A stretch of DNA of 64,000 bases from Cyanophora paradoxa CCMP329 (taxonomy: Eukaryota; Plantae; Glaucophyta): NCBI GenBank assembly GCA_004431415.1, contig QPMI01000439.1, forward strand, positions 434,001 to 498,000, given 5' to 3'. The notes beneath the pieces were generated by a model. The model was given only the letters and a program-made list of their open reading frames with translations. It did not search any database and had not been told where the DNA came from. The first letter of the stretch is position 1. Each line of letters opens with the position of its first letter. The position numbers and the translations under genes were made by a program. Shown in pieces: positions 4,013-57,007 of this stretch.

Positions 4013-4214
4013 TATACTGCGCCACAGCACCTTGGGGGCCGCAGCATCGCGATCGGCCTCGAAAATATATTATTTGTTAGCAAAGGGGGTAATATTTAAT
4101 ACTGCGCTACCAAATTACTGCGTTCTAAAATTTTTGAGCGCAGTGCCACGGTGATATGGTAGCGCACGGCGCAGTACAGTGTACGTATACGTAGTAGTTA
4201 CACGAACTGCCCAT

Positions 4215-32664: not shown

Positions 32665-32936
32665 CTGCGCGACGAATATTAATGTTCATGATTAGAGAAA
32701 GCGAGCGGGTGAGATGTTAATTCAGAAGACAGCGTCGGTGCGCCGGCCGGCGGGTTCCAAAATTCTCTTAAGCCTGATCATGAGCGCTCCCCCCCCCCCG
32801 ATCCGGGCGATGCAGCGGTGTTTGCATAATTCGAAATTCCCCTTTTTCTTCGTAATCATGATCTCTCATTTTCCCTCTAGATCTCATTTCAATTCCCTTC
32901 AAATTTCGCGAAACGAAAAAATTGAGAGAAGAATAG

Positions 32937-33031
32937 ACACATATTGAAAAACGAATTTAAATCCCTCGTTCATCTCGATCGCTTCGCGATCTCGATTCAC
33001 TCTGGATTTAAATTCGTTTTTCAATATGTGT
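32937..33031. repeat. Perfect 28-bp inverted repeat with a 39-nt loop at the host/virus junction
   Basis: ACACATATTGAAAAACGAATTTAAATCC (32937-32964) / GGATTTAAATTCGTTTTTCAATATGTGT (33004-33031). Confidence 0.95.
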
Positions 33032-33351
33032 TAATTTAATACTAAAATACATATTTTTCGATTAATTTCTTAAACTTTTTATGCAAACTTTGTATAAAAT
33101 AATGCAAACTTTGTATTAAAAATGAAAACGCGTTTACCAAAATGCATATTTTCGATTAAACTTCGATAGATTCAATTGATCTTATATCGATTGATTATGT
33201 ACTTTGTTGTTTACATACAAATCTGCGATAGATTAACATTAAACTGCTTAAAGATCGATATAATTGCGATTAAATTGCATAAATTCGCATAAACTCGATA
33301 TATCTCTCATGTATTGAAGTAGACCACCGCCCATTCTGTATCGAAAAACGC

Positions 33352-33610
33352 AAAAAGTGTCACAGAGTTGCATTGTGTCCAATTGAACAATCGATGAGAT
33401 TGCTGATGTACATTTTTGCACCGAAAAAGTGTCACAGAGTTGCATTATCTCCCATTAAACAATCGATTAGATTGCGGGATTTTCTATTGGAATATATCGG
33501 AACTGCATTATGTCCAATTAAACAATCGATGAGATTGCGGATTTATATTTTAGATCGAAAAAGTGTCACAGAGTTGCATGGTCTCCAATTGAACAATCGA
33601 TTAGATTGCA
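33352..33610 (+). repeat. Subterminal array of ~52-bp repeats (3 full, 1 partial) with ~20-nt diverged linkers
   Basis: AAAAAGTGTCACAGAGTTGCAT..TCCAATT(G/A)AACAATCGAT(G/T)AGATTGC at ~33352, 33424, 33500 (partial) and 33558. Confidence 0.9.
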
Positions 33611-33719
33611 TATGTTCTATAAAACAGAATAATTGAATTCAAGTGTGACAGGTAGTATTCAAATGATATTCAGTAATAGATATATTTGTTTTTGAGAAAG
33701 TCAGTAAGAGGGGTAGAAT

Positions 33720-34140
33720 GTCTGTGACAGGTGTGACAGGTGTGACAGGTGTTTTCAGAAGTCTGTCATTTTTGAAAAATTTAGAAAGTTTGAAAATAGG
33801 TGTCACACCTGTCACACCTGTCACACTCAATTAAACTACCTGTCACACCTGGTCTCCTTACCATTTTCAGTAAGACAGAAAGGTATTCATGAAATCGACT
33901 ATTGTTGGGTGGATTTTGAAGGTGTCACACCTGTCACATAGACTGTTTTCAGTAAGACAACAATAAATTCTTGAATATCTCAGTAAGAAATAGAGTCTTT
34001 TGTTAATTGGGTGTGACGGGTGTGACAGGTGTGACAGGTGTTTTCAGAAGTCTGTAATTTGTGAGAATTTTAAAAAGTTTGAAAATAGGTGTCACACCTG
34101 TCACAGGCGTCACAGTCAATTAAATAGGTGTCACACCCGA
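33720..34140. repeat. Two palindromic iteron cassettes: (TGTGACAGG)x3 - AT-rich core - (CCTGTCACA)x3; candidate replication origin
   Basis: Cassettes at ~33723-33850 and ~34003-34138, further TGTCACA copies, and five CAGTAAGA motifs between 33700 and 34165. Confidence 0.85.
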
Positions 34141-34337
34141 TTATCTGACCATTTTCAGTAAGACCATCTGAAATTCTGAATTTCTCAGTGTCAACTAACT
34201 CGGAAATCGCAATACTCTATGTTTCTCCGATTTCTCCAACCCTGAAAACACACCTGTTATTCTCTCATCTATCTCATGAGATACTCTCGTTTCGCCAAAA
34301 ATTGACAAACGATTTCCCATCATGCTGTAAAGGAAAC

Positions 34338-34592
34338 ATGCCGATTAACCAGCAGTATTACAATTACTATGGGCATTACTTCTTGATTGTCAAGAAACTC
34401 CCAGAGCATTATGAGATCTTCCAAGAGATGGGATTGCGAATTACAAGGAGATCAACCCTTTGTAGATTCTTGAAAAAGAATGGTGCTAAATGGGATAAGA
34501 CAATTCGCCAATGGTATACAGAAGATCCCAAGAGTCCCTTACTTGATATTTTCGAAACAGTGAATTTGGATCAGTTTAATCATTTCCGATAG
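34338..34592 (+). CDS. Small DUF5710-like protein
   Basis: KKNGAKWDKTIRQWY matches the GA(R/K)WDxxxKxWY pattern of DUF5710; upstream AAAAATTGAC. Confidence 0.6.
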   Translation: MPINQQYYNYYGHYFLIVKKLPEHYEIFQEMGLRITRRSTLCRFLKKNGAKWDKTIRQWYTEDPKSPLLDIFETVNLDQFNHFR

Positions 34593-35508
34593 CCAGAAAC
34601 TCCAACTGGAATGAGTTGTCAATCCCATTCATATCTACAAGATCACCATAATAATCGCGAAACTCAACTGTTAACTCTCTAATCACCAGGTTTCGATCGG
34701 TTATTTTTATGTATTCACTGTGCTCTCCACTGTGATATACATACTGCCCAATATCTTTACTTAACTGCAATCTGAGAATTGCCCCTTGATTCTGTGGTTG
34801 TGATCTTGGGACAATATTGTGGTTTGTAGCAAATGGGGAGAGTTCTTTAATGTGCATGTATAAATACTGTTCTGCATTCATGTCTGTCATCTTGGCTGCT
34901 TCTAACTTGTAGTTTAAGCGAGATGCCTCGAATTCATATCCTGTAAATGTTATTCCCCATTGGGGATGGTTTGGGGTGATTGGTATTCCTGCAAAATAGA
35001 GGAAATTCTCGGGAGCATATAAAGACCTTGCAGACTCTGGGAAATCGTAGTTCTGCTCTAATGAAGCGACCCAGTCAACAGAACTCACCCCAAGAAGTTT
35101 ACCCAATCTCTGTGTAGATGCTACCATCTCGAATTGAACATTACTGTAAAACTCTAATTTGTAGGAGGTAGGATTGTAGTAGACCTTGAATGCATATGTG
35201 AGATTGTTGCTCCCAGTAAATGTGAAATTCAGACCATAATTATATGGACTGGTGACCCCGAAATGCCCTTGATTAATATAACCACTTGGGAGAAGGAAGA
35301 CCTGCTTGGTTTCAGAGATGCCTTGGTAGTAGAATCTGACAAGAAGGTGATCTGTTCCAATGGAGTTATAGATGCTGTTGGGGATTTCTGCATACAAAAC
35401 TCGACATTCTCTTGGTTTGGTCACTGGGGTTGTGAGTGCAACTTTGTAGGAGTTTTCTATTTGTCCATCTGATCGGTCTCTGCTATCTATATTGACCAGC
35501 CGAATCAT
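34576..35508 (-). CDS. Minor capsid protein (penton) 1
   Basis: N-terminal VNIDSRDR, AEIPNSIYN, YLYMHIKEL and C-terminal LTVEFRDYYGDLVDMNGIDNSFQLEF, typical of PLV/virophage/NCLDV single-jelly-roll pentons; next to the MCP. Confidence 0.85.
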   Translation of the reverse strand: MIRLVNIDSRDRSDGQIENSYKVALTTPVTKPRECRVLYAEIPNSIYNSIGTDHLLVRFYYQGISETKQVFLLPSGYINQGHFGVTSPYNYGLNFTFTGSNNLTYAFKVYYNPTSYKLEFYSNVQFEMVASTQRLGKLLGVSSVDWVASLEQNYDFPESARSLYAPENFLYFAGIPITPNHPQWGITFTGYEFEASRLNYKLEAAKMTDMNAEQYLYMHIKELSPFATNHNIVPRSQPQNQGAILRLQLSKDIGQYVYHSGEHSEYIKITDRNLVIRELTVEFRDYYGDLVDMNGIDNSFQLEFLAIGND

Positions 35509-35536
35509 TTTAATATATGTTTATAGATAAAAGAAG

Positions 35537-36546
35537 ATGCCTGTGGATTACATCGAAGTGAGCTCTTTCAATACAATTTCGGGAGATGGACCAACTTCGA
35601 GTTTTATTGCTCGCCTCCCAAGCACCTATGAATTTGTGAGAGCAGTAAGACTGGTTTCAGCAGAATTCTATAACAGCATTCCCATGGTGAGTGGTGAAAC
35701 CAAAGTAGGAGATGTGACAATAGATAATGCAATCTACCTTTATTGGTCTGAATATTATTCTGGTGCAGGAAGCACTGGTATTCCAACTGATCGACCTGCT
35801 GCCGATTATGAGCAATGGAAGCACATTGTGATAAGTCGCAGCACACCCATTCAAAACCACCAACAACTGGTGAATGTAATTAACTCCAAACTTGCATTGA
35901 GAGAGCCACCAGTAGCAATTCGCTGTAAATGGGATGATACACTGAAACGAGTAATATTCCATTCCACCATACCGTTTTACCTGGCTTTCTCAACTGCAAT
36001 AAACCCAACCCAGGCGCAGATTCAGAGGTTTTTGAGTTCTGCTCGACTGCTTGGTCTTGATCCTGGGAGATATGGTAACACCCCAATCCAATCACAAGTT
36101 TATAATACTCTGACTGATGGTATCTTTACTGGGTCGATGGTGCATGGTATCATATCTTCATTTGAACCTGAAAAGACCAGGGATAGTGTTCTGTTTGTGA
36201 GAGTAAAGGAGTTGGGTGATCTGGTTCAATGTGGTGATGGTCTCCTCACGGATATTTCCACAAAATCGTTGTTCCAGATAAAGATTATGGTGAGCATGTC
36301 GTTTATAATTCGACAGAAGCCCATCCGATTTATAAATACTATAACAAGAATCTGGGACTTTCCACATTTTCGGTTGATATTGTGAATGCAGTTAATGAAC
36401 CAATTGATTTCGAGGGTCAACCTGTCCACCTCACCTTCGAAATTCGATATGGTGATGAACCTGCTGGTGATCCTGTGTACGAATACTTCAAGAGGAGAAT
36501 GGCGGAAACACATCCATCTTATCCGGTTATTGCGAATTTTGCGTAA
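35537..36546 (+). CDS. Minor capsid protein (penton) 2, one frameshift near 36280
   Basis: Paralogous to penton 1 (VRLVSAEFYNS, LFVRVKEL). After the frameshift it reads FSVDIVNAVNEPIDFEGQPVHLTFEI to a stop at 36544-36546. Confidence 0.75.
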
Positions 36547-36600
36547 AATCAAGGATCATTGGTGAATTTTTTATGTTGCAGTATAATAAAAGAGATAATC

Positions 36601-37974
36601 ATGGATATTACTTCGACCCTCCAACGTCTTTCTCTGAAAGAAGCTCTAACAACCCCGGAAGAAGCCAAGGCGTTCTTCTTGGACAACTCTCTCATGCTTG
36701 GTCTTGAATCCAAGTCGAAGCCAGTTCTTGTTGTTGTGAACCCAAGCAACACTTTCGAGAATAATGCTGGAAATCGCATTTCTTTCAAGCTCCCTCGCTA
36801 CAATTTCTGTGGAAAACTCGAACTTGCGTTTGACCTTCCAGCTGTCACTTTTGCTGGTGATACCGACCTTGTTCGCAATGGATACGTTCGCCCAGTTGGT
36901 GCTCTTGTCTCTCGACTTGAAATTACCTATGGATCTTACACCTTCCATGTGCCTTCTGATTTCCTTGCTCATTTCCCTCTTATCTATTACAGTGAGGATC
37001 AACTCGCCAAGAAGAAGCGTTCAATGGGAATGGTTCATGGTATCCCTGCCCATGGAACCAACCGACTTGGTGGGTCATTTTTCACTGAAATCCCAGTCCC
37101 ATGGCTAAACCACTACCTACCTCTTGGTGCTCTCTCAGGAGAAATGGTGGTAACTGTCTGGTTCAAGGATGCTGGAAAGGGTTATGTTGAGACTTCTTAT
37201 GGTGGTCGTGCTCTTCCTGTTGTTGGTGGAACAGCTGCTGATAAGACAGAGGATGATGGACTTGGTGCTACTGCTAATGCTACTCTTGCCCATGTTGGTC
37301 AACAAATCACCACTTTTGGAATTGGTGCAACAACAACCCCCGAAATTAAAGTCACTTCTCCTCGTCTTTACATGCATGCTATTAATGTTTCTGATGAACT
37401 GTTTGCTACTGTCATTGAGAAGGTGAAGACCACTGGTATGGCTATTCCTGCTCTGGATATTGGTTTTGTTGACAGTGTCAATTTTGCTGCAAAAGGCAAT
37501 GCTCAACCAAATCGTATTAACCTGTCACAGATCTCTGGTCTTGTCTATGGTCTTCTTGTTTCAGTTCGTGATGCCGCAGGTATTGATGGTTTCAATGGTT
37601 CCCACAGTGTCCTAAAAACGCATGCTAACTCAAAAGACATTACTTTCACTGTTGAAATTAATGGTCAACGTCTCTATGCTACTGAGCCCATCCCTCTCCT
37701 CAAAGGTGCCGAATTAATTGCGGATGCCTTCAAGTGCTCAAATATGGACAAGGTTGCAGACAAATATGTCCTCAGTGGTCTACCATTCTGTGTTGATGGA
37801 GAGAAAGCGATTCGCAACATTGCCCAGTCTGGCTATGTTGATCTCACGAACTCCTCCTCTTCTTTCCTTACTCTATACATGCCTTCTGACCAGACAATCA
37901 CAGTTAATGTTCGTGCTCTCATGCACAGTTTCATTATTGTTGACAAAGATGGTCTTCGTCGCATTAATCTGTAA
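36601..37974 (+). CDS. Major capsid protein (double jelly-roll, PLV type)
   Basis: ~457 aa and beta-rich, with GNRISFKLPR, VSRLEITYG, IPVPW..YLPLGAL..EMVVTVWF, LPFC and SGYVDL. Lies between the pentons and the ATPase and has strongly biased T-ending codons. Confidence 0.8.
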   Translation: MDITSTLQRLSLKEALTTPEEAKAFFLDNSLMLGLESKSKPVLVVVNPSNTFENNAGNRISFKLPRYNFCGKLELAFDLPAVTFAGDTDLVRNGYVRPVGALVSRLEITYGSYTFHVPSDFLAHFPLIYYSEDQLAKKKRSMGMVHGIPAHGTNRLGGSFFTEIPVPWLNHYLPLGALSGEMVVTVWFKDAGKGYVETSYGGRALPVVGGTAADKTEDDGLGATANATLAHVGQQITTFGIGATTTPEIKVTSPRLYMHAINVSDELFATVIEKVKTTGMAIPALDIGFVDSVNFAAKGNAQPNRINLSQISGLVYGLLVSVRDAAGIDGFNGSHSVLKTHANSKDITFTVEINGQRLYATEPIPLLKGAELIADAFKCSNMDKVADKYVLSGLPFCVDGEKAIRNIAQSGYVDLTNSSSSFLTLYMPSDQTITVNVRALMHSFIIVDKDGLRRINL

Positions 37975-38036
37975 AACCATTATCAGTAACGTTTCGTTAT
38001 TTTTATCTATCTTTAATAAGAAAGATCTACAAAGCC

Positions 38037-38819
38037 ATGTCTGACGTTCCCGAATTTAATGCTGCTGAGATGATTAAACCCCCTTTTCGCGTATTAGCAA
38101 TCGGAAAAAGCGCGACGGGCAAGTCAGAAGCCGTAAAATATTGGCTAAAACAACTTCACGATGCGAAAAAGTTAGATGTTGTTCTTGTTATAAGTGGGAC
38201 ATCATTCAATCATTTTTGGGATGATGTCGCAACATTACAGCTCGGTAAATGGGATGCGCCTTACATCGCTAAACTTCTCGATGAAAGACAAGAGAAAATT
38301 GAGAAAGGAGAACCCGTTAATCAATTATGTGTTGTTCTCGATGATCTTATAGACAATGAGATTGTAGACCTTACCCGTGATAAAATTATTGGATCTCTGT
38401 ATTCGCGCGGCCGCCACTCGGCGATTACAATTTTCTGCATAACTCAGAAACTGCGTAAGGTTTCTTCAACCATTCGCGTCAATTCGGATTATGCAATGTT
38501 CCTCAGTGCCGCCAATCGCAAAGAACTGGAAGCCATTGAAGAAGAATACAATATCATGCGGGATAAAGACGCTTTCTATAAGATGTTTGAGGAATACGTT
38601 CACTCCTATCAGTTTCTCATTTGGAGTTCTGCGAATTATTCGGTGGAATACTACGTTGATAAAGCGGAACTCGTTAAAGACTTTAAGTTTCCTCGGTTCC
38701 ACAGGAAGCCCAAAAAGAAAGAGGACGAATTACCACCTCCACAGAAAGAGGAAGCCCCCAAAGAGGTCAAGAGTGGTGTTCATTCGAATAAACTGATGCG
38801 ATATAAGAGAGGTTTATAA
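38037..38819 (+). CDS. A32/FtsK-HerA family DNA packaging ATPase
   Basis: PFRVLAIGKSATGKS (Walker A), VVLDDL (Walker B), SRGRHS..ITQ..IRVN motifs. Confidence 0.95.
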   Translation: MSDVPEFNAAEMIKPPFRVLAIGKSATGKSEAVKYWLKQLHDAKKLDVVLVISGTSFNHFWDDVATLQLGKWDAPYIAKLLDERQEKIEKGEPVNQLCVVLDDLIDNEIVDLTRDKIIGSLYSRGRHSAITIFCITQKLRKVSSTIRVNSDYAMFLSAANRKELEAIEEEYNIMRDKDAFYKMFEEYVHSYQFLIWSSANYSVEYYVDKAELVKDFKFPRFHRKPKKKEDELPPPQKEEAPKEVKSGVHSNKLMRYKRGL

Positions 38820-38847
38820 AATAATCTCTGCTTCTAATAAATATACA

Positions 38848-39582
38848 ATGCCTTCCAAACGCAAAGTTGGTGTTGCTGCTGGTGCTATGTCATATTCTGC
38901 ATCCTCTGGAACCGGTTCTATTAACACAGAGCCCATGAAATTCAATGGTGTCAATGAAGTTAAAGCATCACAGCAACAAGAAGATCCCCTCAATGCTGCT
39001 TACGAAGAATCACCAGATGATAAAGCTCCCCAAGCTTCCACAAGTGACCAGTTGAATATTTCGCCCGAAACCTCTAAGATGAAGGCAGTTGGTGAAGGTG
39101 CTCGTCGAATTATTGGTGCTGCTGATGACAAAGGACTGGGTCTCCAAGATCTGTCCCTTGCTCGCAAAGGTGAAGGTGTATCCAAAGAATCAGACAAGGT
39201 AATTCAATCCATGGCTGGTGAGGTAACCTACAAGGTCGCACCTACACAGAATATCCATCGAATTCCCAAAGCCCAATGGGACGAAATGACTGCGAAACTT
39301 AAAGATCTGGAAGCGAAATCCAGTGCTCTTGAACAGTATGTCTCTGAGAAGAAAGAGAGAGCGAAATTAAAGGAGATGCTGCGAAAGGAGGTGTATAGAA
39401 TGGGAATCACTGGTCTCCCAGATAAGCAGTTCATTGGTAAGAAAGAGACTCAAATTGATGAGCAGGCAGTTGATGAGATGAAGACCAAAACCCAGAAGGG
39501 CACCATTGAACCTGGTGCTACCAAATCAGAGGTCGATAAAGGTGTTGCCCCAACAGTATATAAACGACGAGTTTGGCTTTAA
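38848..39582 (+). CDS. Hypothetical viral protein, charged with a coiled coil (possible core protein)
   Basis: Intact 244-aa ORF with viral codon usage, basic termini and upstream TCTA. Confidence 0.6.
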   Translation: MPSKRKVGVAAGAMSYSASSGTGSINTEPMKFNGVNEVKASQQQEDPLNAAYEESPDDKAPQASTSDQLNISPETSKMKAVGEGARRIIGAADDKGLGLQDLSLARKGEGVSKESDKVIQSMAGEVTYKVAPTQNIHRIPKAQWDEMTAKLKDLEAKSSALEQYVSEKKERAKLKEMLRKEVYRMGITGLPDKQFIGKKETQIDEQAVDEMKTKTQKGTIEPGATKSEVDKGVAPTVYKRRVWL

Positions 39583-39609
39583 TTATCTCGCATTAAGAGA
39601 GAGAGCATC

Positions 39610-39843
39610 ATGGATTTCTTGCGAAAACTCATAGAGATGTTCAATCTCCACATTGTGAGCAATTGTCACAGTGGCTGCTGTGAAACCAAAGTCGAAATCG
39701 AATTCTCTGACACTGAGAGTCATGGATCTGGTGGTAGGCGATTATCCACAGATTCGGTGGATTTCGAAGAGCATATTAAAACAGAGACAGTGAGGCGCAG
39801 GTCTGTATCTTTCACAGATCCGAAATTAAATCTCGGTAATTAA
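39610..39843 (+). CDS. Small Cys-cluster viral protein
   Basis: 77 aa with SNCHSGCC, in the same gene run as the MCP and ATPase. Confidence 0.5.
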   Translation: MDFLRKLIEMFNLHIVSNCHSGCCETKVEIEFSDTESHGSGGRRLSTDSVDFEEHIKTETVRRRSVSFTDPKLNLGN

Positions 39844-40043
39844 TATCGAATGCTCAGTCTCTCTGAGATCTATGCTATCCTTGAAAGGAAATCCGCTGAA
39901 TATGCAACAGAAGCCGCAATAAAAAAGCGTAGACAGGAACTGGTCTCGATCTGCAAAAAATGACAAGGGATTTAAGGGTAAGGTGTGTTTGATTGGTGAA
40001 CCGGACAAATTATTTTCTCGTCCCATTATAAGGAACATATCAA

Positions 40044-40271
40044 ATGGAAACTGAATCTGTGGTCGAATTCGAACTTGCAATGAGCGAGGTGGATCCCAAT
40101 GAGAGGAAAAGGTTGTATGACCGCTTGTATTTCCAGAAACGCTATCAAGATGAGGAATTTCGAGAATTATATCGTAAAAAGGCACTGGAACGATATTATC
40201 GCAGGAAAGCTGCTGAGATGGATCCCAATAATCCAGTGAAACGCCCAGTAGGTCGTCCCAGAAAATACTGA
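40044..40271 (+). CDS. Small AT-hook DNA-binding protein
   Basis: Basic/Tyr-rich helix ending in KRPVGRPRKY (GRP AT-hook). Confidence 0.7.
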   Translation: METESVVEFELAMSEVDPNERKRLYDRLYFQKRYQDEEFRELYRKKALERYYRRKAAEMDPNNPVKRPVGRPRKY

Positions 40272-40465
40272 ACCGCCCCCAAAGTCCCAGATATCCGCTG
40301 AATCCTTTTTGTTACCATGATCAATCGACTTTTCGATGGATCATTACCATACATCGAGCGCCAATCGGAGAACCCAAAGGTATTTAAAGGTTAGGCGCCA
40401 AAAAATGACAAGCGACCGGAGAAATTAATTTCTCCATTAAGGATAAGAAGCCCCCGATTGTTGAA

Positions 40466-42828
40466 ATGAACGCTGCCGCCAAGAAATCCCTGAAACGCCT
40501 TGTTGAATGGCTTCGTGAAGACGATGTCCTGTCTGAGAATATCGTTATTCCTGTTGATCCTGATACCAAAAAGCCACTTTTCGCTCATAAAGACGGAACC
40601 TGGTCTTGGGATAAATTCGATGAAGCCCTGAAATCCGGTAAATATACTGCTTGGGGCATTCTCGCTCGTAATATCCTGGTAATTGACTTCGACCAAGAGG
40701 AGGATTTCGCCAAATTCGAGGAGCAATTCCCTGATGATTTCGGTGGTGTTAATCCTCTTGCTAAAACCAAAAAAGGATATCATGCATTCTTCGCTCGACC
40801 TGCTGAATTCGACACCATTAAGATCTGGGATAAAGCGGGTGCATTCAAAGGAAACCCCAAGATCGACTGCAAAACGATTGCATCCACTGGGACTGCTGGG
40901 GTGATTAATGTTTGCCCAGTCCCAACAAAACATGGATCAGAGAGCCATGGGCATCTGAGTGTGAGTTAAATGAACCCACTGCTGAGTTGCAAAAGTGGAT
41001 TGTTGAAAACTACGAATTCCCCAAAGGTGCACATTCTTATTATGCAAGGTGCGCTGAGGAGAATTTGCAGAAACATATTCTTTCTAAACTCGAAGAATTC
41101 GGTTTCATCTTGCCCACAATCATCAATGAGACCAAGATGGGATACAATTTCACTGCTGAGAACAAAGGTCTGGTCTGTCCCTGCTGCAAGGGAAGCCATG
41201 ACTCAAACAATTGGTATATTATTCAAGGGAAGGAGAAAGACAAGTACATTGTTTCGAGTTACAGTGCAAACTGCAAGAAGCGAAGCATCACTGTTCGTGT
41301 GAAGGAAGAGACAGATGTGAAGATCGAAAATCTGATTGATCGGTCTGCTGGATCTGATGGTGCCCATTATGATGTTGCACAGGTTGCCTATCTTGTTCTG
41401 CAAGACAAATACAAGTATTCCAACAAGACCTGGTTCAAGTTCAATGATATATGTGGGATTTGGGAGTTGGATGAAACTGGGAAGCGAATCTTTCTCTGTT
41501 TGAGCTGCAAGGTCTGTCCAGTTTATCTTCAACGTTCTGTTCAACTCGCACAGAGAGCTCTTCGTGATGAAGAGAACCGCAATTCCTTGGAGGAAAGGTC
41601 AAAGATTCTGCTGGGAATTGCTAAGAGCCTCAAACAGACTACATACAGAACTGCACTTATGTCTGATCTTTCAGTTCTGTTCAGTGACAAGACCTTTTTC
41701 GAGAGACTTGATACTGTTCCCAACATCATAGGATTCACAAATGGTGTATTTGACTTGAACTCCATGACTTTTCGACAGGGACTCCCAGATGATATGGTGA
41801 GCAAGACTGTTGGCTACGATTATACCACAGAAATCGACCAAGAGAAGGTTGCAAAGATTAAGTCCATCTATGCAGATATTATTGAATCGGATACAGACCG
41901 CGAATTTATGTTGGGATTAATCGCCTATGCCCTGAGTGGTTTGACAGAAAATCAGAGATACACTTGTTGGACTGGAATTGGAGCAAATGGGAAATCTCTG
42001 CTCCAAGAGTTGGTGAAAGACACATTTGGTGAATACTATGGGTCACTGGATATGACCTATTGGACGAAACCCAAGAAGAGTTCATCAGAGGCTTCCCCAG
42101 AACTCGCTTGCATCCTTGGTAAACGAATTGTTTTCAGTAATGAAGCAGAAGATGGTGATATGCTTCAACTGAACAAAATCAAACAAGTTACTGGTGGGAA
42201 TGAGATGAAGGTTCGAACTCTATTCAAAGATCTTGTAACATTCATTCCCATGTTCCAGTTGTTCTTGTCTACAAATGACAATCTGGGAATCAGTAAACCA
42301 GATGCAGCAATCCAAAGGCGAATTATCTACTACCGATTCGAAAATGTCTTCAAGGTGGAACCTCAACCTGGTGAGAAGAAGGCAGACACCACTCTCATGC
42401 GCCTCATGAAGAATGATGATGATTATAAAATGGCGCATATGTCCATTCTCCTGGAAATGTGGAGAACCCATTCTCTCAATACATTCGTCACCAAACCTCC
42501 CCAGTCCATTGTTGATCAAGGTATGGAGTATTTCAATGAGAATGACAAGATTGGAGAGTGGATTCGAGAGAATTATGAACTCACCAAGAGTCAAGGCGAT
42601 TTCACTACAAGTGAGTCCATCATGAGTGACTTCAAGAGAGACCACATGGGCAAATCTGATGAGAAAATCTCAGATTGCACCATTATGAAGAGACTTCGCG
42701 AAGTCTTTAATGTGAAGTCTGACAGAAAACGAGTGAATGGTGTACTTTGCCGTGGTTACTTTGGGATCATAAAGAAGCATGGTCGCAGATTGATGGATGA
42801 CAGTGATGAGGAGGTTGGGGATGAGTAA
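40466..42828 (+). CDS. PrimPol (AEP) - Zn finger - D5-like SF3 helicase fusion, one frameshift at ~40916
   Basis: VIDFD and KTKKGYHAFF (AEP motifs); CPCCKGSH..C; IGFTNGVFDL (D5_N); WTGIGANGKS (Walker A); SNE; IKQVTGG; STN; AIQRR. Confidence 0.93.
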
Positions 42829-42884
42829 ATAAAACGGAATCAATACTTATACTGTGAATTTCTAATTTTTTAAAACCCTTACTG

Positions 42885-43041
42885 TAAATGGTTTGTGTGA
42901 CAGGTGTGACAGGTATTTTAATTGACTGTGACGGGTGTGACAGGTGTGACAGGTGTTTTCAGGAGTCTGAGGATTTTTAAAAAGTTTAAAAAGTTTGAAA
43001 ATAGGTGTCACACCTGTCACACCCGTCACACCCAATTAACC
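42885..43041. repeat. Third palindromic iteron cassette, directly downstream of the primase-helicase
   Basis: TGTGAC(A/G)GG repeats, the same AT-rich core, then CCTGTCACA repeats. The flanks are reverse complements of those at 34.0-34.16 kb. Confidence 0.9.
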
Positions 43042-43182
43042 ACAGACTCCCCCCTGTGGGTCGATCACTTTTCCGAAGAATAATCGAAGGATATCAAAAC
43101 GTATCGGAAATCGGTGTGTTGTGACAAAAATTGACTGGCGATTTAAGGGATCGTTGCGTGTTTCACTTGACTAAGACAGAAA

Positions 43183-43374
43183 ATGGATTATTTCGATGAA
43201 ATTCGGCGGCAGCTTGTCGAAAAGAATGATATTGCAGAGGTGGCGGATTATATTGCAAAGATCAAAGCAATTAACGGTAGACCCTATCAAAAGAAGCGTG
43301 TTTATGCAAGCAGACTCGACACAGTAAATGTATATGTCCCCAAAGGCACGAATGTGCGAATTATCAGAACCTGA
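43183..43374 (+). CDS. Small hypothetical viral protein
   Basis: 63-aa ORF with upstream AAAAATTGAC. Confidence 0.55.
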   Translation: MDYFDEIRRQLVEKNDIAEVADYIAKIKAINGRPYQKKRVYASRLDTVNVYVPKGTNVRIIRT

Positions 43375-43430
43375 AAAATGGGAAATGCGTTTAAAATGCC
43401 CAAAAATAATATGTTCCCTTAAAGTAAAAG

Positions 43431-46400
43431 ATGCCCCGCCAATCCAATAGAATCATCAAAGAGAAGAAAAACGAAATACTCGGTCTTTTAGGAACCCTTT
43501 TAGTTACTGGTGATATTACAGAATTCGAATATGATCGCCAGGCAGCAATCTTGGATAGGAGACCAAGGTTATCTCAACTCACAGAAATTACAAATCGCCT
43601 CTATGATCGTTTTGAGAAAATGGAGGAATTCAGGGATGAAGGTTTAAGGTTGGGAACAATTGAACCCGAGATTGAGGATGGGGAAGCAATGAACAAAGCA
43701 TATTCTTGGTTAACCTATCGAGCAAGAGGGGAGGTTATCCAAGATGGGATTGAATTCTTGGAGAGAATTGCACCCACTCTACCTCAGAGACTCAGACAGA
43801 AACTCCAAGACCTGAGAGCAATTAAGACTCGGTTGACCTTCATTTGTAAATTCACCAAAGTGAGTGATCCAAGGGTGTGGATCACCAAATTCATTTACAG
43901 TGATTACTTTGTCATCACAAGATCACGAAATATTGATGTTGAACTGCGAAATGCCCTTCAATCCATGCAGGAGCAGATGATGCAAGTTGACAGTTACAGA
44001 CTGGATCGCATTGAGATGCTCAGAGTAGTAATAATGTCCTATGCTCCTGTGGGTGGTTGCTTCTTCTCAACACCTGAGTGGATTGGATTAAAGAGAGCAA
44101 CTGTGAATGTGAAGAATATTGATGGTCAAGACTGCTTCAAGTATGCAATCTTGGCTTACCTGCACCGAAATGATATTAATAAACACAAGAGCAATGAACC
44201 CAGCCAGTATAGAAGATGGTTGAACGAACTCAATTTCGAGGGCATCCAATTTCCAGTTGCCTGTGATGCAGAGGTGATTGATCGATTTGAGGAGCAGAAC
44301 CCTGAACTGAGTATCAACATTTATGGGGCAGATAATACTGCACAGTGTTTCTATCCTCTCCACCAATCCAGCAACCCCAGGAGAAAGACCAAGATTAACC
44401 TTTTATTAATCGAAAACGAAGAGGATGATAGAGGGCATTATATCACCATCATGTCTCTGAGTAGACTTCTGAAAACCACCTTTGATAAAGCCCATGATGG
44501 TCGCATTTATTACTGTGAGACCTGTCTGTCTCGTTTCAGAACTCAGGAGAAGCTGGATGTACATATAGAAGCGAATCGCTGCATTGATTGGAGGGAGAGC
44601 AAAGGTAAATGCCCGAAATCTGGAAGTCACATTGCATTTGGTCTGCAACACCTTCGCAAAACTGTGTGGCTTCCCGCTATCTGCTATGTGAAAATGGATA
44701 GTCACTCGGTTCCAATTGATGAGAACCGCAGTAAGAGAGAGGTAAAATCGGTTTCTCTAACAGTTGTGATGGGGATGAGGTGATCTCTCATTATTTTGAT
44801 GGATCAGATCCCCTTGGTGCTCTGTTTACCACTCTCACAGAGATCAGACCCCAAGTAATTCGCACTCTATTCACCAATATTCCCATGCATCCACTCACAG
44901 AGGAGCAGAAAGCACAATACAAGATCACTAAACACTGTTATATCTGTGCTGAACGATTTACCCATGAGAATTTCCCAGTGAGAGACCATTGTCATCAATC
45001 AGGAGCATTTATTGGGAAAGCATGTCGAAACTGCAACCTCCACAGGAGAATCTCAAAGCAAACGAAAGTAGCAATTGTGGTGGATCACATGGATGAATGT
45101 GGACACGAAATATTCCGCAAAATTGCACAGCAAGATGATAAACTTCGTGTTGAGATCCTGAGCAAGAATTTCGATCAATACCTCTCTCTGCAATGGGGCA
45201 TGTGGAAATTCATAGATGCTTCGCACTTCATGGACTTCCAGGCAGTGGATGCAAGTGATCTAATGGGTAAATTCCAGAAATTCCGAGAATTGGCGTTTTC
45301 CCAATATGGATTAGATCCTGCCCATTATGTTTCGGCTCCTGGATTATCCTGGGATGCAATGCTAATTTACACCAGAGCAAAGATCGAGCAGATCAGTGAT
45401 GTAGGGCAATACGAATTTAGTGAGAGGGCAATTCGAGGTGGGTTTGCTACAATGCCTACTCGATATGCAAAGGTGGAAAACCCAGATGACCATATAGTTC
45501 TCTTGGATGCAAATAATCTGTATGGTTATGCTCTCAGTCAAGAACTGCCCATTGGAGATTTTCGATGGGAAGATGTCACAGAGGCACTTAAAGAGACCCC
45601 TGGACGAAGTGCCTTTATTGAAGTAGACCTGGAATACCCACAAACTCTCACAGATCATTACGATTTTCCACTTGTAGTAATAAAGACAATCACCACCGAA
45701 ATGCTGGGTGAGTATCAACGAAAACTACTGGATATCACAGGTGAGAAGATAAGCAAAGACCCCAAACTCACAGCAACATTCTCACCCAAAAACAACTATG
45801 TGATTTCCCAACCTCTCTTGATCTATCTTGTGAGCAAAGGTATTATAATTAAGAAGGTTCACAGGGTTCTCTCATTTGCAACCTCTGCATTCATGAAGAG
45901 TTATATTGATCTAAATACGAAACTGAGGCGCCAATCTATGTCCAGATTCGAGAGTGACTTCTTTAAATTAATGAACAATGCAATCTATGGTAAATGCCTC
46001 GAATCATGCAGGGGTCGCTCTGTGGTTAAGATTGCTAACAGTGAGAAACTCTGCAAGAAATATGCTGCAAGTCCACTCATCAAGGCAACCAATGTATTAA
46101 ACGAAAATGCTGTTGCCTTTGAGATGTACTCAAAGCATGTTCACTTAGATAAACCTGTTGCAATTGGTGCTTTTGTGCTGGATTTCGCGAAACTCCATAA
46201 CAGCAGGTTCTTTTATGATGTGGTGAGGAGAACTTGGGAAACAGCAGAGCTACTATTCCATGATACAGATTCTTTCTGTCTAATGCTTCATACCAATGAT
46301 CTTAATAATGAGATGAAGCGAATTTCTGAACACCTGGATTGCAGTAATTATGATACTCCCCCCTCTCTTGATAGGAGAATCGTTGATTCCAGGTAAATAT

Positions 46401-46700
46401 AAAAACGAGTTTCCCAATGCAAAGATTGTGGAGTATGTAGGTCTGAGATCGAAACTCTATGCTTTCAGAACTGAGACCTTTGATAAAATAAGATGTCTGG
46501 TACTTCCTCCAAAGAGGTTCACTTTGATGATTTCAAGAGATGCCTGTTGAAGGCATCACCAAAACAGTAGCAGTAGTAAACAAGCGAAGCAAGACCACAA
46601 CCTATATGATTTGGAGAGCAGAAGGGTGGCTCTAAACCAACTCGATAGCAAAAGGAAGATATTAGACGATGGAATTCACAGCATTCCATTTGGGCTCTAA
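43431..46700 (+). CDS. Protein-primed family B DNA polymerase (Polinton/adintovirus type) with C2H2-like and endonuclease VII inserts; several frameshifts
   Basis: NVKN.D..CFKYAILA; CETCL..H; CYIC..RDHCH..G..CRNCN (EndoVII); YGLDPAHYVSAPGLSWDAML; LDANNLYG (A); KLMNNAIYGK (B); HDTDS (C); GLRSKLY; DSKR..DGIHSIPFG stop at 46698-46700. Confidence 0.93.
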
Positions 46701-46879
46701 TCTACTTCATCAATCTTTCTTTTTCTTTGGTTTCGCTCTCCAAGAAGTAATAAACCGCGAATTAAATGCAGCAGCCATATACATCTTAATCCTGGATCAT
46801 TGGGCTCGATTGCAAATAGTTGGGAATGGTGTCTTTCCACACAGACTCTTGCATTTATTATATGAGAGATAAGGTAAAG

Positions 46880-48375
46880 ATGCCTTCTACACAAATAGGA
46901 TTGAGACAACCACCAGAATTGTTAGAAAAGAAGCAATTGAAGATCGAGGGAATATTCTGCCCATCACAGTTCCAGTGGAGGAGAAGAGCAGTCGAATATT
47001 AAAAAGATCAGAGATGGTCAAGCAATTAATTCCAGAGACCCTCCCAGCTGAGACAGCACCAAAAGAGTCGAAGATTGCTAAGAAGTTCTATGATCCCAGA
47101 ACAGGTTACAAGGGATTTACTGCAATGAGACAGGAACTACCAGAGGAGAACTACAAGAAAATGAGAGAATGGTATGATAAGCAGGAGGTTGTCCAAATTA
47201 ATGCACCTACCCTATCTCGAAAGAGAGATCCCATGATTCCAATTAGGCAACCCCTTGATACATATGTGATTGATCTGCTCTTCTTTCCTGCATACAAAAA
47301 GCAGAATGATGGTTATGATACATTTATGAGTGCAATGGAATCAACCCTAAGAACTGGGTTCATCATTCCAATGAGAGACAAGAGTGCTCTTACTACACTT
47401 GCAGCATTCAAGCAACTTGAACAGAGAGTCCCCAGACCAATTGTTCGCATTCAGAGTGATAGTGGAAGCGAATTTACCAATGTCTTATTCACAGATTATC
47501 TGGGAACCAAATTCATTGAGCATCAACTAAGTGATGTTGCAGATCACAGAACCCAAGGTCGGATTGAAGCCTTTAACAGACAGATCAAGAGATTAATCAC
47601 AAACTACTGCATTGCAAATAATACTGCACGATTTTTTGATGTGTTGGGTGATATTGAGTATAATTATAATAATACCATTCACTCTGCAACCAAGAGAAAA
47701 CCAGCAGAGACCACAGAAGCCCACTACAAAGAGATTGTGAATATGGAGGATCAGAGATTCAAGAAATCGATTGAGTATCTTGATGCTCTGAAACCTGGAA
47801 TGTTTGTGAGAGTGAAAGTTGAAAAGAACCCATTTGCAAAGCAGGGAGTTAATTGGTCTCGAATTGTTTATAGTGTGGAGGGCAGAGAGGGCTTCAAGTT
47901 CAGAATCAGAAGTCCCAGTGGTGAGATAGTTGATGGTAGATTCGCTTTTCATGAACTGCTGCCCATTAAAGGCGTTGAGTATCATGAAACTCCCACAGTG
48001 GATGCTCTTGAACAGGCAAAGGAGGAAGCCAGGGTTGATTCAGCAATCAGAAAGGAGGGCATAGAAAAAGCAAGTGAAGTACCAAAAGAACCCCTTACAG
48101 AAGCAAGAGCACAAAAGAAGGGTAGAGTAGAGAAAGAATTAAAGAAGTTGACCATAGCAGGAACCCAGAAATTATCAGAAGTTAACAGTCAGAGATGGTA
48201 TAATGACTTTTCAACCACCAAGGAAACATATACTGCACCCCAAACTCGATTCAATCTACGAAGTGGCAGAGGAAATAGATTAACAACGCTTTCGGAATCT
48301 CTTAGACCTCTGGCGAATTTTTCTCATTTGTCTATCTTTTTCAAGAATTTCCAAGAAGAAAGTTTCAAGGTTTGA
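46880..48375 (+). CDS. Retroviral-like (rve, DDE) integrase, Polinton/mavirus type
   Basis: YYDP-like FYDPRTG, IDLLF, QSDSGSEF, GRIEAFNRQIK, YNNTIHSATKRKP and a VRV..F.K..NWS domain. Probable start at 46880 with a frameshift near 46970. Confidence 0.93.
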
Positions 48376-48522
48376 AACCAGTTGGTAATTATAAACAAAG
48401 AACAGTCTCACATGCTCTGGCTGTGACATGAAGAAATTGTAATAGAAAGCAGTTTTGAAATCATGGATCCAGTCTGATTGGGCAGCATGGATGATAGCAG
48501 GGTCTTGGTAGATGGGATCCAT
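48280..48522 (-). CDS. Small hypothetical viral protein with a basic C-terminus
   Basis: 80-aa ORF; AAAAATTGAC 30 nt upstream on the minus strand. Confidence 0.5.
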   Translation of the reverse strand: MDPIYQDPAIIHAAQSDWIHDFKTAFYYNFFMSQPEHVRLFFVYNYQLVSNLETFFLEILEKDRQMRKIRQRSKRFRKRC

Positions 48523-48709
48523 AGCAGAATTGAGAGAATCCAGAAAATCCTTGTCAATTTTTTATTTTGTTAGTGCCCGATATCAACGGAATCTGATAGC
48601 CGCTGACGAGAGGATTCCGAATCTGTTTTCAGAATTGAAAACGGAGCAGTTGGTGAAGAGTTACCTGCGTTTATCGGTTGACTCAACTTGACTGTGAACT
48701 GCGCGCAAT

Positions 48710-49362
48710 CGCGAACCGTCAAGTATATATGCATATATATATATATATACACTTTTTTACCAGAAATTCCGTTTGACCAAACCGAGATTACGGAGGTTTT
48801 GTGTATATATGCGGTATATATGTCGAGAGTTGTCTGTTGGATTTCCTGGGCTCCTCTGGACATCAATCTTGTAATATTGTTGTATTTCATACAAAACATC
48901 AATGGAAGTTGTATTCGATAGCGATGATGTCATGATGTTGAGGCTGATAGAAAATATTAATGAGTTTTGAGGCTGATAGAACTTATGAATTGTTGTTGAG
49001 GCTGATAGATTGCAGAAGACTTTTTGATGATGCAGATAGAATTTCCAGATGCAGACATCTATGATTGTTGTACTCGATACAAAACTCTGGCTTCCCTATT
49101 GATGAAAGACTTTGGTTATGACTCATTGTTGATATAGATATCAACAATGAGTCGTCTTCGGATATCTACCTCAACAGTTAGTCATAACCGATATCTATAT
49201 CAACAATAAGTCATAACCTCCGAAAGAGTGCAACATATATACACCATATCTACACCATACATTTCGTGTGACCCTGAGCCCCAGAGTCGCCGACCGATCG
49301 CGACCAATCCGCTATTTTGTGGTCAAAATGTATATTTGCGCATATATACTTGACGGTTCGCG
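48710..49362. repeat. Non-coding segment bounded by 23-bp perfect inverted repeats, with an internal palindrome and 29-bp repeats
   Basis: CGCGAACCGTCAAGTATATATGC (48710-48732 / 49340-49362); palindrome 49120-49153; GAGGCTGATAG x3. Confidence 0.85.
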
Positions 49363-49647
49363 TTACTACTGTCGGCATCGCGTAACGTTCCCACTGTGGG
49401 GCTTTCGGCATCTTCAAACGCTTGTATCTCACCACCAGATCATCAGATCGTGACCGTCAACATAGCGCTGGAAAGCGCTTGCAAAGACCTACACGATGGT
49501 GTAGGTATCAAGTACATATACGTATATATTACATACAAATATTTCGAAAAAACGATTAATCGGCTACTTTCTACTGTAAGGAACATACAGTAAAATAATG
49601 CGAAAATACAGTAGCTACTGTAAAAAATCGCCATAATCTGGTGCACC

Positions 49648-49670
49648 ATACATCAGAAGTCCTGATGTAT
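49648..49670 (-). terminator. Hairpin immediately after the lipase stop codon (candidate 3'-end signal)
   Basis: ATACATCAG-AAGTC-CTGATGTAT, a 9-bp stem abutting the TGA at 49670-49672. Confidence 0.35.
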
Positions 49671-51206
49671 CATACACTTCGAATAAATGCACCTGTGACA
49701 TCCACTCTCATAGTTGGGGCATTTATATATACAATTGGATAAATACGAATAAACCTTGTCCTCAGAGGGTAGCCAATATAGAAAACGTCTTTAATAGAGG
49801 TGGGATACCCAGAACTGTATGAGACATCACCACTGTTATGGGCATTATTAATTGTTTCACACATGAACACTCTATTCACACCTTCATACTTGATAAATGA
49901 CCAGGAAACACCATCTTGTGAGGTTGCAACATTGAAGGTCTTAACAAAGGCATTGGTCACACCAGACCCATATGCAATTATAGATGCTACCTCATATATA
50001 TATGGGAAGGATACTTGGAGATACTCAGTGGGAACACTCCATATCCCATCAGGAGCAGATGCATTTGCCTCCCAACCTGTTAAAGAAGGTCTTGCTTTAA
50101 ATGCCTCCCTTCCAATTTTTGATGATGAAGCAGTGAAAGCACCATCTGATAGAAGATACCAGTTAGCATCAATGGGAGGTATGTTATTCAGAGTTGATGA
50201 TATATAGAACCTTGCAGGGTTCTTGATTTCATAATTTGCAACCAGTAAATCACAGAGTCTATCAATCATCACAGTGTTTGCTGCTATATACATTTCGGTT
50301 GCATCTATCATATCAGGGATCTTAGAGGTATCATCCAGGAGTTTACTATGGTCTTTGGAAGTGGACAGAGAGTCTATAATATCTTGCATATCCCTGATCA
50401 TCATTATATGGGAGAAACTCTTGCATCTTTTCCAGGGCTGAGAGTTCACTTGCAGCCATCAACATATTAATTAATGGACTCCCAGAGGTCGAAGCAATCC
50501 ATGAGAGAATGCCCCAGCTGTTGACATCTTCATAGGAATATCCCACATTTGGGGCATCTGTTTCATTGACCTCACCACAGGATATACTGATCACAATTAT
50601 ATCATCATCATCATCATAGATCTTTTTAGCATGGCTGTAACCACATACACTGGGATTGTTGTTACCTGATATTGCACCATCAATTAGAGACATCCCATCA
50701 TAGTTCACAGGTGAGAAGTAAGTAGGTGCAGCAGAGGTGGATCTTGCAGCAATCTTGCTGGGATGGATTTGTAGGAATTATCATTGGTGATAAAGATGGG
50801 CTTCATGCTCACAGTGTCAAAACTGGTGATCACCACATCTTTCAGAGAGTCTTGAATGAGAGACTCACCAGTAACAGTGAGAATGGCTGTCTCCAATGGG
50901 GTCACATCATACTTGGTGTTGAAGAGGGCATTATCTATTATATTTCGGGATTTGCAAAGATTAAAGGCAGTTGATTGAGATAAGTGGAATGCAAATCGGT
51001 TGCAGTGAGTTTAGGTTCGTTTGGAAATTCGGGATTTTTCACATTGAGACCAATAGCAATTATCCCACCAGTGGATGTACCACTCACCAGGTCAACAAGG
51101 TCAATTACTCTTTTTCCTGTTCGAGTTTCGATTTCTTTTAGCAATCTCGTAATAATTATACCACGAGCTCCCCACCTGAGAGACTGAGAATTACACGAAG
51201 GGGCAT
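49670..51206 (-). CDS. Viral patatin-like phospholipase probably fused to a C-terminal discoidin (F5/8 type C) domain; frameshifted
   Basis: ILSLSGG(G)ARG, DLVSGTSTGG, RSTSAAPTYF, LIDGAISGNNNP and ISISCG, then ASS..W..EYLQVSF..FVKTFNVATSQDGVSW..TRFIRIYP..MRVDV. Confidence 0.85.
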
Positions 51207-51255
51207 CTTTACTTTACTCAAATTTAATAAATCTCTATAAGTAAAGTGAACAGGG

Positions 51256-54200: not shown

Positions 54201-54580
54201 TGCTATGAACCCTCAAATAATGCGACCATCAGTCGATGCATTACAGAAGCAGATCTTTCCAGTCAACTCAATGCATATTTTAATGGAAAATTCAAGCAGG
54301 TAAGTATGTTTACACTACTCCTGTTTTAAATTACAATAATCTATATGTGTTCAATCTTACTATCTATTTTACCAATGCCTTTGCTTCTCCTCCTGTTGTT
54401 ACAGCAACTGTAAGGCATGAAGGACAAGAACCAAATTATCAAGTAACTCCCGTCATTTTTACTGTGAACCTGTTGAATGTTTACAGTAACTATTTCACTT
54501 GTGAACTTTTCACTGATCCATATGCAATGAATAATTCATCCAAAACTGTAACAATCCATTACATTGCTGTCGCAATTTAA
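51256..54580 (+). CDS. Long phage-tail-fibre-like protein(s), broken by frameshifts
   Basis: DLG..RQWRNIH motif; acidic LPDG..PQEYE repeats; FPPEDHxHxW..IxGKP x3; YLPLTGG; TGDYNDLLNKP; ten HxH..ITDF repeats; C-terminal FTNAFASPPVV domain. Confidence 0.75.
53662..54021 (+). repeat. Ten 36-bp coding repeats, consensus HTHTKSEITDFA
   Basis: Open frame from 53641, continuous with the ORF at 54067; missing from the ORF track because it has no start codon. Confidence 0.92.
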
Positions 54581-54599
54581 CTATTTGATTAATATAAAG

Positions 54600-55643
54600 A
54601 TGACCTCTCTATTAGAAATCCCAAACTATGAACTTGCAGCCAAATCACTGCACAGCACCTCTCATGGAGTAGTTGATTCAACCCCTGGGTATATTTGTAC
54701 TGAAACTTCAAGTAATACCTCTTTCACAGAGAATAATATACTCAGAGTCAAAGAAATTCGATGTGATAGGAATGGAGGCAAGATAAGAACCACAGGAATT
54801 ATTATCTCGAATAAAAATCAGGTTCAAGCAGGTCAAGTAGTCCCAGATTCAGCAATATATGATAATGTAGGTGGATTTACCACAGCACAGATAGTTTCTT
54901 TTGGTAACACAAGTAATACTTCCGCTCTTGTAGTCAAGAGTGGAGGAGCATACTTTGGAGAGGCATTAAAGGTGAATGGAACAGTAACAGCATCCATACT
55001 AAATGCTGGAAGTGGAATGTTTGAGAGTCCAATAAATTTTGAGGGTGGATATAATGCGAGTAGTTTTTCAGTTGGTGTTGGTGTCTTTTCCACAATGTTA
55101 AACACACCTGAAATTGAATCATCGAATGCACTCAATATCAAGAGAAATGCAGTGGTTACAGCAACCATAAACAATGTTTCCCCTTCAATAAATCTAATTA
55201 AATATCTGAAAGCTCCTCACCCTCGGTTTTGTATTGTAAATTATTCAACATCAGCAGTTACTGTGGGAACCACATCAACAGCAAGAAGATTCGCTTTTAA
55301 CAGAACTCTTGTGGATGCAAGCAATAATATCACATTATCCACAGGCACCTTTACAGCACCTGTGTCCGGAATTTATAGATTCTTCTTCATTGTTCAAATG
55401 TCAACAGCTTCATCAACAGGGGAGTGTAGAGTTGCATTTAGAAAGAATGATTTGGCTCTTTCCCTCAATCGGTTCAAGAATTTTCAACTTACAATGGAAG
55501 GCGAAGTGTTCATATGGAGGCTTCTTTTGCTGTATATGCGAACGAATTTGTGAATGTTATACAAACCTGGACATCGTCCATGCAATATGATGCTACAATA
55601 CAAGGTATTACCTGTTTGGGGGCATCTCATCAGTAGATTATAA
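54600..55643 (+). CDS. Fibre/spike paralog 1 with a C1q-like head
   Basis: Shared N-terminal domain (ICTE..SFT.N.I.R.KEIRCDRN.GKIRTT); FTAPVSGIYRFFF C1q motif; frameshift near the C-terminus. Confidence 0.8.
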
Positions 55644-55665
55644 ACTTTTTGTTGGGAATTTATAG

Positions 55666-56686: not shown

Positions 56687-56705
56687 TTTCTACAAGTAGT
56701 TTAGA

Positions 56706-56969: not shown

Positions 56970-57007
56970 TGTACATTATTTTTCTTTCCTTCTTAGTAAA
57001 AGAAGCA

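Follow-up and report, generated by a model that had tools for sequence, protein, structure and literature searches.

Introduction

In the staphylococcal pathogenicity islands (SaPI) the replication origin lies directly after the rep gene, and its opposed iterons around an AT-rich centre are bound by a C-terminal winged-helix domain (PMC9371898). The Sulfolobus plasmid pRN1 encodes ORF904, a protein with Prim-Pol, SF3 helicase and winged-helix domains, and its essential stem-loop, which forms a 100-bp origin and is described together with a putative BIP-1 origin, begins 54 bp after orf904 (PMC4234260). For entomopoxvirus-associated Polinton-like viruses (PLVs), a primase-helicase gene beside inverted repeats, proposed as its origin, has been described as an 'end module', with exchange of modules among PLVs (PMC11296320). 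As the place where replication starts in PLVs that encode a primase-helicase, terminal repeats have been proposed, without site anatomy (PMC11296320), and the PLV gene sets in PMC10120064 and PMC12220804 are likewise given without origin anatomy. Statements on the cited reports refer to their accessible parts. Here, we analyze a stretch of 64,000 nucleotides from Cyanophora paradoxa CCMP329 (the window; contig QPMI01000439.1, positions 434,001 to 498,000), of which 32934..57905 is the in-window part of an integrated Polinton-like/Maverick-type element. The element carries three palindromic TGTGACAGG cassettes, A at 33723, B at 34003 and C at 42918, the last of which begins 50-90 nt past the stop of a primase-helicase gene (42828), whereas A and B are not gene-adjacent. 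We lean slightly towards the reading that these cassettes are origins in one multi-copy integrated Polinton-like virus, and that B and C, whose arms are swapped, form a junction scar.

The resemblance to the SaPI Rep/PriRep5 system includes opposed short iterons, an AT-rich centre, a position after the primase-helicase gene and a winged helix, which is predicted here. In contrast to the single ori per island and the bacterial host described for SaPI (PMC9371898), we find three arm-swapped cassettes of 7-nt repeats at a 9-bp spacing in a eukaryotic virus that also encodes a Polinton-type family B DNA polymerase (pPolB). With pRN1 the element shares the Prim-Pol and SF3 helicase domains of the replication protein, a predicted winged helix and, at cassette C, a large stem-loop about 50 nt past the stop; for pRN1 a single origin on a circular plasmid is described, and the accessible account contains no tandem nonamer arms (PMC4234260). 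The PLV end module is partnered by a tyrosine recombinase and reported there without iteron anatomy (PMC11296320), whereas here the gene-adjacent repeat is internal, with pPolB and an rve integrase beyond it. The endogenous virophages and PLVs of Halocafeteria seosinensis have terminal palindromes of about 50 nt, some encode both pPolB and a D5 primase-helicase, and nested and chimeric arrangements occur, comparable to the terminal palindrome, the gene pair and the proposed joining of modules here (bioRxiv 10.64898/2026.07.28.741278). These three features thus have a precedent, but the accessible part of that work describes neither internal iteron cassettes nor a capsid block bounded by origins. 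In our literature search, which left subscription papers mostly outside its coverage, we found no description of a capsid module flanked by two arm-swapped origins out of three, nor of Polinton genome isomers that involve inverted repeats, nor of an excision or nesting of the kind considered below. The papers listed for the nonamer were unrelated, judged by title.

Structure of the three cassettes

Two classes of arm, P (B-left and C-right) and Q (A-right, B-right and C-left), are distinguished when each arm is followed from the core outward. Cassette A (33723..33874) consists of three heptamers, a core (33748-33801), three further heptamers and a Q-type right arm ending in CAGTAAG. Cassette B (33993..34162) has a P-type left arm (44 nt), a core at 34037-34090 and a Q-type right arm (73 nt), and cassette C (42878..43049) has a Q-type left arm (74 nt), a core at 42952-43006 and a P-type right arm (44 nt). 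The two-armed pattern occurs three times in the window, where 100 shuffles give an expectation of 0.00. Within the element, TGTGAC[AG] or its complement is found 38 times (8.1 expected, maximum 16), together with 14 tandem pairs of the heptamer where none are expected. At least three iterons stand on each side, and the 9-bp phasing and the polarity of the core are kept in all three cassettes. All three cassettes have a stem-loop fold (z -7.8 to -11.6), with loops of 74-76% AT compared with 59% AT for the element.

The cores are 54-55 nt long and lie in the same orientation, with 49/54, 48/55 and 47/55 identical positions, as opposed to just 32-34 of 57-58 when reversed. The P arms match at 42 of 44 positions, the first 35 of them exactly, and the Q arms at 62-66 of 75; C-left is in this copy nearer to A-right (66/75) than to B-right (62/75). 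The two arms of any one cassette match over 25-34 nt only. In shuffles the extension of Q past the shared palindrome is significant (p 0.002 and 0.0005), whereas the short P extension alone is not (p 0.7). With rc for the reverse complement, cassette B reads P-core-Q and cassette C rc(Q)-core-rc(P); the two are 8,915 nt apart and share, as direct repeats, two identical blocks, one of 36 nt and one of 37 nt. The Q tail motif, CAGTAA[GT], also occurs at five places to the left of B, in the left terminal array.

An earlier note on this DNA had reported three cassettes, with outer flanks inverted between B and C around cores of the same orientation. Our counts and alignments bear this out in full, and the six flank motifs that it quoted were located at 34002/43022, 34108/42919 and 34148 (also 33860)/42878, the third pair with one mismatch. 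The layout that it called an inverted copy with a flipped centre is there, and that wording is one of two equivalent descriptions. An assembly artefact was ruled out, as the cores differ by 9-15% and a contig of sequencing run X17 matches the C-left flank exactly. We also rejected a reading of the block between B and C as a miniature inverted-repeat transposable element (MITE), because its 8.7 kb consist of viral genes and almost every copy has it.

The cassettes as putative replication origins

The tandem 19-mer of the repeat matched 22 loci in IMG/VR, and primase or helicase domains were detected in 13 of the 14 adjacent open reading frames (ORFs) tested. At 12 of the 22 loci the repeat lies within 350 nt of the 3' end of a primase/helicase gene, and at two more the distance is about 2 kb. 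Judged from their flanks, and after allowing for related pairs, the 12 loci represent about eight independent lineages; of the two at about 2 kb, L016 was taken as the twin of L006. The other eight show no tie to a primase/helicase gene, and seven of these look like coding repeats. The full two-armed pattern had no match in IMG/VR and two in the GTDB collection, both after primase-helicase genes, one 150 nt after a DUF3854/DUF927 gene and the other 570 nt after a Prim-Pol/D5_N/DUF5906/Pox_D5 gene. One GTDB locus thus has a gene with the same Prim-Pol/D5_N/DUF5906 build as the primase-helicase of the element. Among 19 phage records that match the A/B region, the match falls inside annotated primase/helicase genes in 15, all of them from Microbacterium phages (E 0.01-0.5). 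A 19-mer specific for the core matched five unrelated metagenome sequences. Two bacterial genomes have the two-armed TGTGACAGG cassette after primase-helicase genes of different families (L037:2082-5085 and L036:60-2893), and lend themselves to a comparison of DNA-binding tails.

By analogy with the systems above, the cassettes are likely to be binding and melting sites, that is, replication origins, for the primase-helicase of the element itself. The suggestion of the earlier note that they are helicase-loading origins gains support from their position and from the comparison, from which we infer binding and initiation. The predicted C-terminal winged helix would bind the TGTGACA repeats, spaced at 9 bp, on both arms, after which hexamers would be loaded and the AT-rich loop opened, with priming by the Prim-Pol domain. 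Cassette C would be the gene-adjacent origin, with A and B as copies in the left terminal array. The element makes the origin idea directly testable, for it offers an exact substrate of 120 nt and a cognate enzyme, and its repeat is found again next to primase-helicase genes of bacterial viruses.

The primase-helicase gene (40466..42828, + strand) encodes a Prim-Pol primase and a D5/SF3 helicase, with a frame break near 40914, and the Walker A and arginine-finger positions are retained. Its structural model (mean predicted local distance difference test, pLDDT, 76) has C962R of African swine fever virus as best structural match (E 4e-27, template modelling score 0.74). Residues 471-546 are modelled as three helices and a terminal hairpin, a winged-helix-like arrangement, with a pLDDT of 55-82.

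History of the arm-swapped layout

The scar that we slightly favour would date from the joining of a capsid and primase-helicase block with a half that carries pPolB, the integrase and the fibres, and both halves would now travel together at about 1:1. Within the window their gene sets are complementary: capsid genes are found only inside the block, and fibres and the integrase only outside, where the earlier note had indeed placed them together with pPolB. Two histories, each of a single step, could lie behind the layout. Cassette C could be a full inverted copy of B, for example what was once the right terminal repeat of a 10-kb PLV with a primase-helicase, in which case its core would have flipped once between the 16-nt inner repeats; this is the description given in the earlier note, and it fits the end-module idea (PMC11296320) and the occurrence of the Q tail motif across the left terminal array. 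Alternatively, one crossover in the core would have joined a backbone with the origin P-core-P to a circle with Q-core-Q, like attL and attR; the recombined arm pairs (42/44; 62/75) are indeed longer palindromes than the cassettes' own arms (30/34, 32/34). The sequence of one copy is compatible with either history and does not separate them. The hairpin-transfer flip/flop of the core mentioned in the earlier note is not required, since two palindromic origins that crossed over once would end up arranged in the same way. Such an arrangement could permit inversion via the arms, or looping-out via the 36- and 37-nt direct-repeat blocks. An arm-swapped pair of this kind gives a concrete route to the mosaicism of capsid and replication modules that is well described in PLVs.

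Of the sequencing runs listed, 20 are from one organism and contain 54-64% of the words of the window; four of these were examined for depth and joints. The host flank is identical across the four, which are therefore probably not independent. The depth inside the block relative to the polymerase-integrase half is 1.14-1.30 in selected single-contig rows (29 inside, 10 outside), and 1.13-1.31 in binned medians (12 bins each, the low bin at the private insert described below left out). The cultures had presumably not been induced, and rare forms are lost from contigs; in these samples a many-fold amplification of the block is ruled out, with room for two or three extra copies. The claim that the block is a separately amplifiable mini-virus thus lacks support in the four DNA runs, and the fibres and the integrase lie outside it. 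The bin with A (33328-33991) has two to three times the depth of the interior, which might reflect a second terminal copy; as this is a summed contig depth, we do not use it as evidence.

Contigs of the four runs contain 13 listed joints, one of which connects 34135 to 42904 on opposite strands in three of the four runs (depths 1176, 834 and 1437), with seven shared letters at a heptamer; in run X17 the window's own form stands at 240 and the joint at 834. In the copies with this joint, C-left and B-right are exact reverse complements along 36 nt, and the contig ends before the core. In most copies, then, the arm past the helicase gene is exactly the reverse complement of B-right over these 36 nt. 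The joint may mark an inversion junction, and it fits a variant C-left arm equally well.

Several observations weigh against the reading of the cassettes as origins and of the swapped pair as a scar. Binding and replication are argued by analogy, and pPolB and the terminal hairpin give the element other ways to initiate. No relative with DNA context was found in IMG/VR with the major capsid protein (MCP), the helicase, a three-sequence MCP alignment or P0011 as queries. The opposite-strand joint could be a true inversion junction. By both measures, the block stands at a greater depth than the other half in each of the four runs, an excess that could correspond to two or three additional copies per genome. 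Lastly, the observed/expected ratio of CpG is not the same in the two halves, at 0.65 vs 0.45 (p 3e-7), though this difference is patchy and the variation per kb is just as large.

An explanation that takes the joint at face value is active isomerisation, in which homologous recombination or template switching, either between the Q arms or between the P arms, would turn the 8.7-kb block round, with or without the cores, and yield genome isomers in which the helicase gene always ends beside an origin. The presence of the joint in three of the four runs speaks for it, and the arms of a pair (42/44) resemble each other more closely than the cores do (47/55), a pattern that ongoing homogenisation would produce. 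The short side of the joint is just 36 letters, however, and reads equally as a variant C-left arm; the joint is absent from run X1, no reciprocal joint is among the 13 listed, and the 82 frames of the window include no tyrosine or serine recombinase that could serve as a dedicated invertase. We consider ongoing inversion unlikely. More doubtful is the view that the repeats are not origins at all, and are instead terminal-repeat sites for another protein (the integrase, the packaging ATPase or a small DNA-binding ORF) or inert slippage products, with C as a relic terminal repeat. It would account for A and B, which belong to a degenerate terminal array and are about 6.3 kb away from where the primase-helicase gene starts, and pPolB elements can initiate at their ends; yet the same repeat and layout recur at the ends of primase/helicase genes in unrelated phages and prokaryotic elements, and the phasing and core polarity are preserved in all three cassettes. 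We judge this improbable.

A cointegrate with an excisable mini-virus has, in our estimate, a slim chance. Here, a crossover between the direct-repeat cores would free an 8.9-kb circle with the capsid genes, the ATPase, the primase-helicase and a Q-core-Q origin, leaving P-core-P ahead of pPolB in the backbone. The layout is exactly that of an attL/attR-like pair, the recombined arms make longer palindromes than the cassettes' own, B and C share the identical direct blocks, and the small consistent excess in depth and the CpG difference would follow. No joint that skips or returns about 8.9 kb is listed, but the shared 35-37-nt blocks are probably too long for the contigs to span, which applies equally to the missing reciprocal joint; the assembly, we assume, used 31-letter words. 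Sequence of the Q type is also present outside the block (A-right, and the five CAGTAA[GT] motifs left of B). The block (34.1-42.9 kb) has no integrase, recombinase, fibre or protease, the backbone has no capsid genes within the window, and database searches, IMG/VR among them, found no stand-alone relative. The corresponding origin story, in which the block was a circular mini-virus, a single crossover at an origin common to both inserted it into a Maverick backbone that had no capsid genes, and the reverse crossover between 122-nt direct repeats releases it again, is as remote, and at 8.9 kb such a virus would be smaller than the 14-40 kb given for PLVs. If true, each product would regain a symmetric origin, and the origins would double as recombinase-free attachment sites for the swapping of capsid modules. 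Either inversion or excision would be a genome dynamic for which our literature search found no counterpart.

Gene content of the element

The earlier note had placed pentons, an MCP, an ATPase and a primase-helicase in the block; the latter two are firm, the MCP and one penton depend on language-model look-alikes, and the second penton is unsupported. The A32-type packaging ATPase (38037..38819, +) matches Pfam Pox_A32 at 4e-9. The MCP (36601..37974, +), probably a double jelly-roll protein, scores 0.98 to Capsid_N/Capsid_NCLDV clusters of the ESM Atlas (recognition 1777, below the 2300 mark), without a Pfam or PHROG match. Its closest capsid relative is a Cyanophora paradoxa protein (59% identity), just two relatives of it turned up in a search of 1.84 billion representatives, and the fold from its single sequence (pLDDT 32) was of no use. 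The penton-like protein (34576..35508, -) has weak support, with ESM Atlas values of 0.97-0.98 to clusters that include Sputnik V18/19 (recognition 1991, below the same mark). The candidate second penton (35537..36385, +), which has a frame break near 36249, obtained no support for a penton function from the Pfam, PHROG or ESM Atlas comparisons.

Outside the block, pPolB (43431..46396, +; Pfam DNA_pol_B_2, 3.5e-12) has frame breaks in this copy and is predicted to use protein priming. It is 32-38% identical to eight IMG/VR polymerases that match both halves of it; among these eight relatives there was no helicase match and no such cassette. By eye its exonuclease motifs look degenerate and its polymerase motifs intact, which suggests a pPolB without proofreading. 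The rve-type integrase (47014..48375, +) matches Pfam rve at 0.0019, below the cut-off, and a PHROG transposase at 2e-11. It gave tblastn matches in four of the eight pPolB loci, and the integrase search returned one relative, on a 2.3-kb contig. In a Polinton-like contig of IMG/VR (L035:4657-4840), a 184-nt palindrome with an internal 51-nt repeat lies between the rve and pPolB genes. Domain searches place F5/8, patatin-like and fibre-like genes (PTR, H-lectin, C1q) at 49670..57851; the patatin-like lipase gene (50349-51213, -) is frameshifted and adjoins the F5/8-domain gene. The frame breaks near 36249, 40914 and 44770 coincide with sites at which contigs of all four runs have an extra base, and therefore belong to this copy or its assembly.

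The motif AAAA[AT]TGAC occurs nine times (1.4 expected). At 34298, 39956, 40401 and 43127 (+) and 48561 (-) it stands 40-90 nt upstream of five non-structural genes, three inside the capsid block, the primase-helicase among them, and two outside, so that it is used on both sides of C, in keeping with a single virus. An 84-aa ORF (34338..34592, +) and a 63-aa ORF (43183..43374, +) follow the AAAATTGAC motif at 34298 and 43127, respectively. The motif resembles the Mimiviridae-type early promoter of giant viruses, which is used by the Phaeocystis PLV PgVV-14T (bioRxiv 10.1101/2022.07.28.501842); this likeness suggests that the element depends on a giant virus, which may be one still to be discovered in this host. 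Counts of Sigma-70-like promoters are at chance level.

Boundaries and genomic setting

The limits of the element were drawn from a step in GC content, from depth and from the end of a host contig. It has about 40% GC in host DNA of about 50-70% GC, is at least 25 kb long, and reaches 12-20 times the host depth in the four DNA runs; a low-depth host contig stops at 32963, near the left end (~32934). Several features of Mavericks/Polintons (PMC12220804) are shared, namely pPolB, an rve integrase, an ATPase, probable capsid genes, low GC and multiple copies; the differences are the extra Prim-Pol/D5 replicase with putative origins of the cognate type, and that no protease was found in the window. 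The element works like a Maverick/PLV in which a maturation cysteine protease was not found among the 82 frames of at least 75 aa in the window, beyond which the element runs on. No partner of the left end, as expected for a terminal inverted repeat, occurs inside the window, and no Rfam family was detected within 32.5-58.5 kb.

At the left end a hairpin of 105 nt (32932..33036; fold z -10.3) has a perfect stem of 28 bp (32937-33031). It resembles the terminal palindromes of the Halocafeteria virophages and PLVs, and might be a self-priming end alongside pPolB. Four degenerate repeats of 62 nt follow at 33342..33609 (+), three of which contain TGTCACA. On the right, a run of 13 T at 57906 truncates the start of a viral gene and is followed by GC-rich DNA with a Ulp1 protease domain, and the true right end of the element is probably outside the window. 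This poly(T)-ended, GC-rich insert (57906-64000), with its Ulp1/C48 domain on the minus strand, may be a retroelement that carries a SUMO protease; the six frames scanned showed no reverse transcriptase.

A further insert of 650 bp (48710-49362) is MITE-like, with 35-nt terminal inverted repeats, and has a depth about 10 times lower than the rest of the element; it is private to this copy or a few copies. It contains internal inverted repeats and 29-nt tandem repeats at 49107-49218 and 48938-48995. Among 12 ORFs in the host flank none matched Pfam. The same flank has, at 3070-3202 and 3903-4144, inverted and direct repeats with TACTGCGC, possibly the ends of a non-autonomous transposon.

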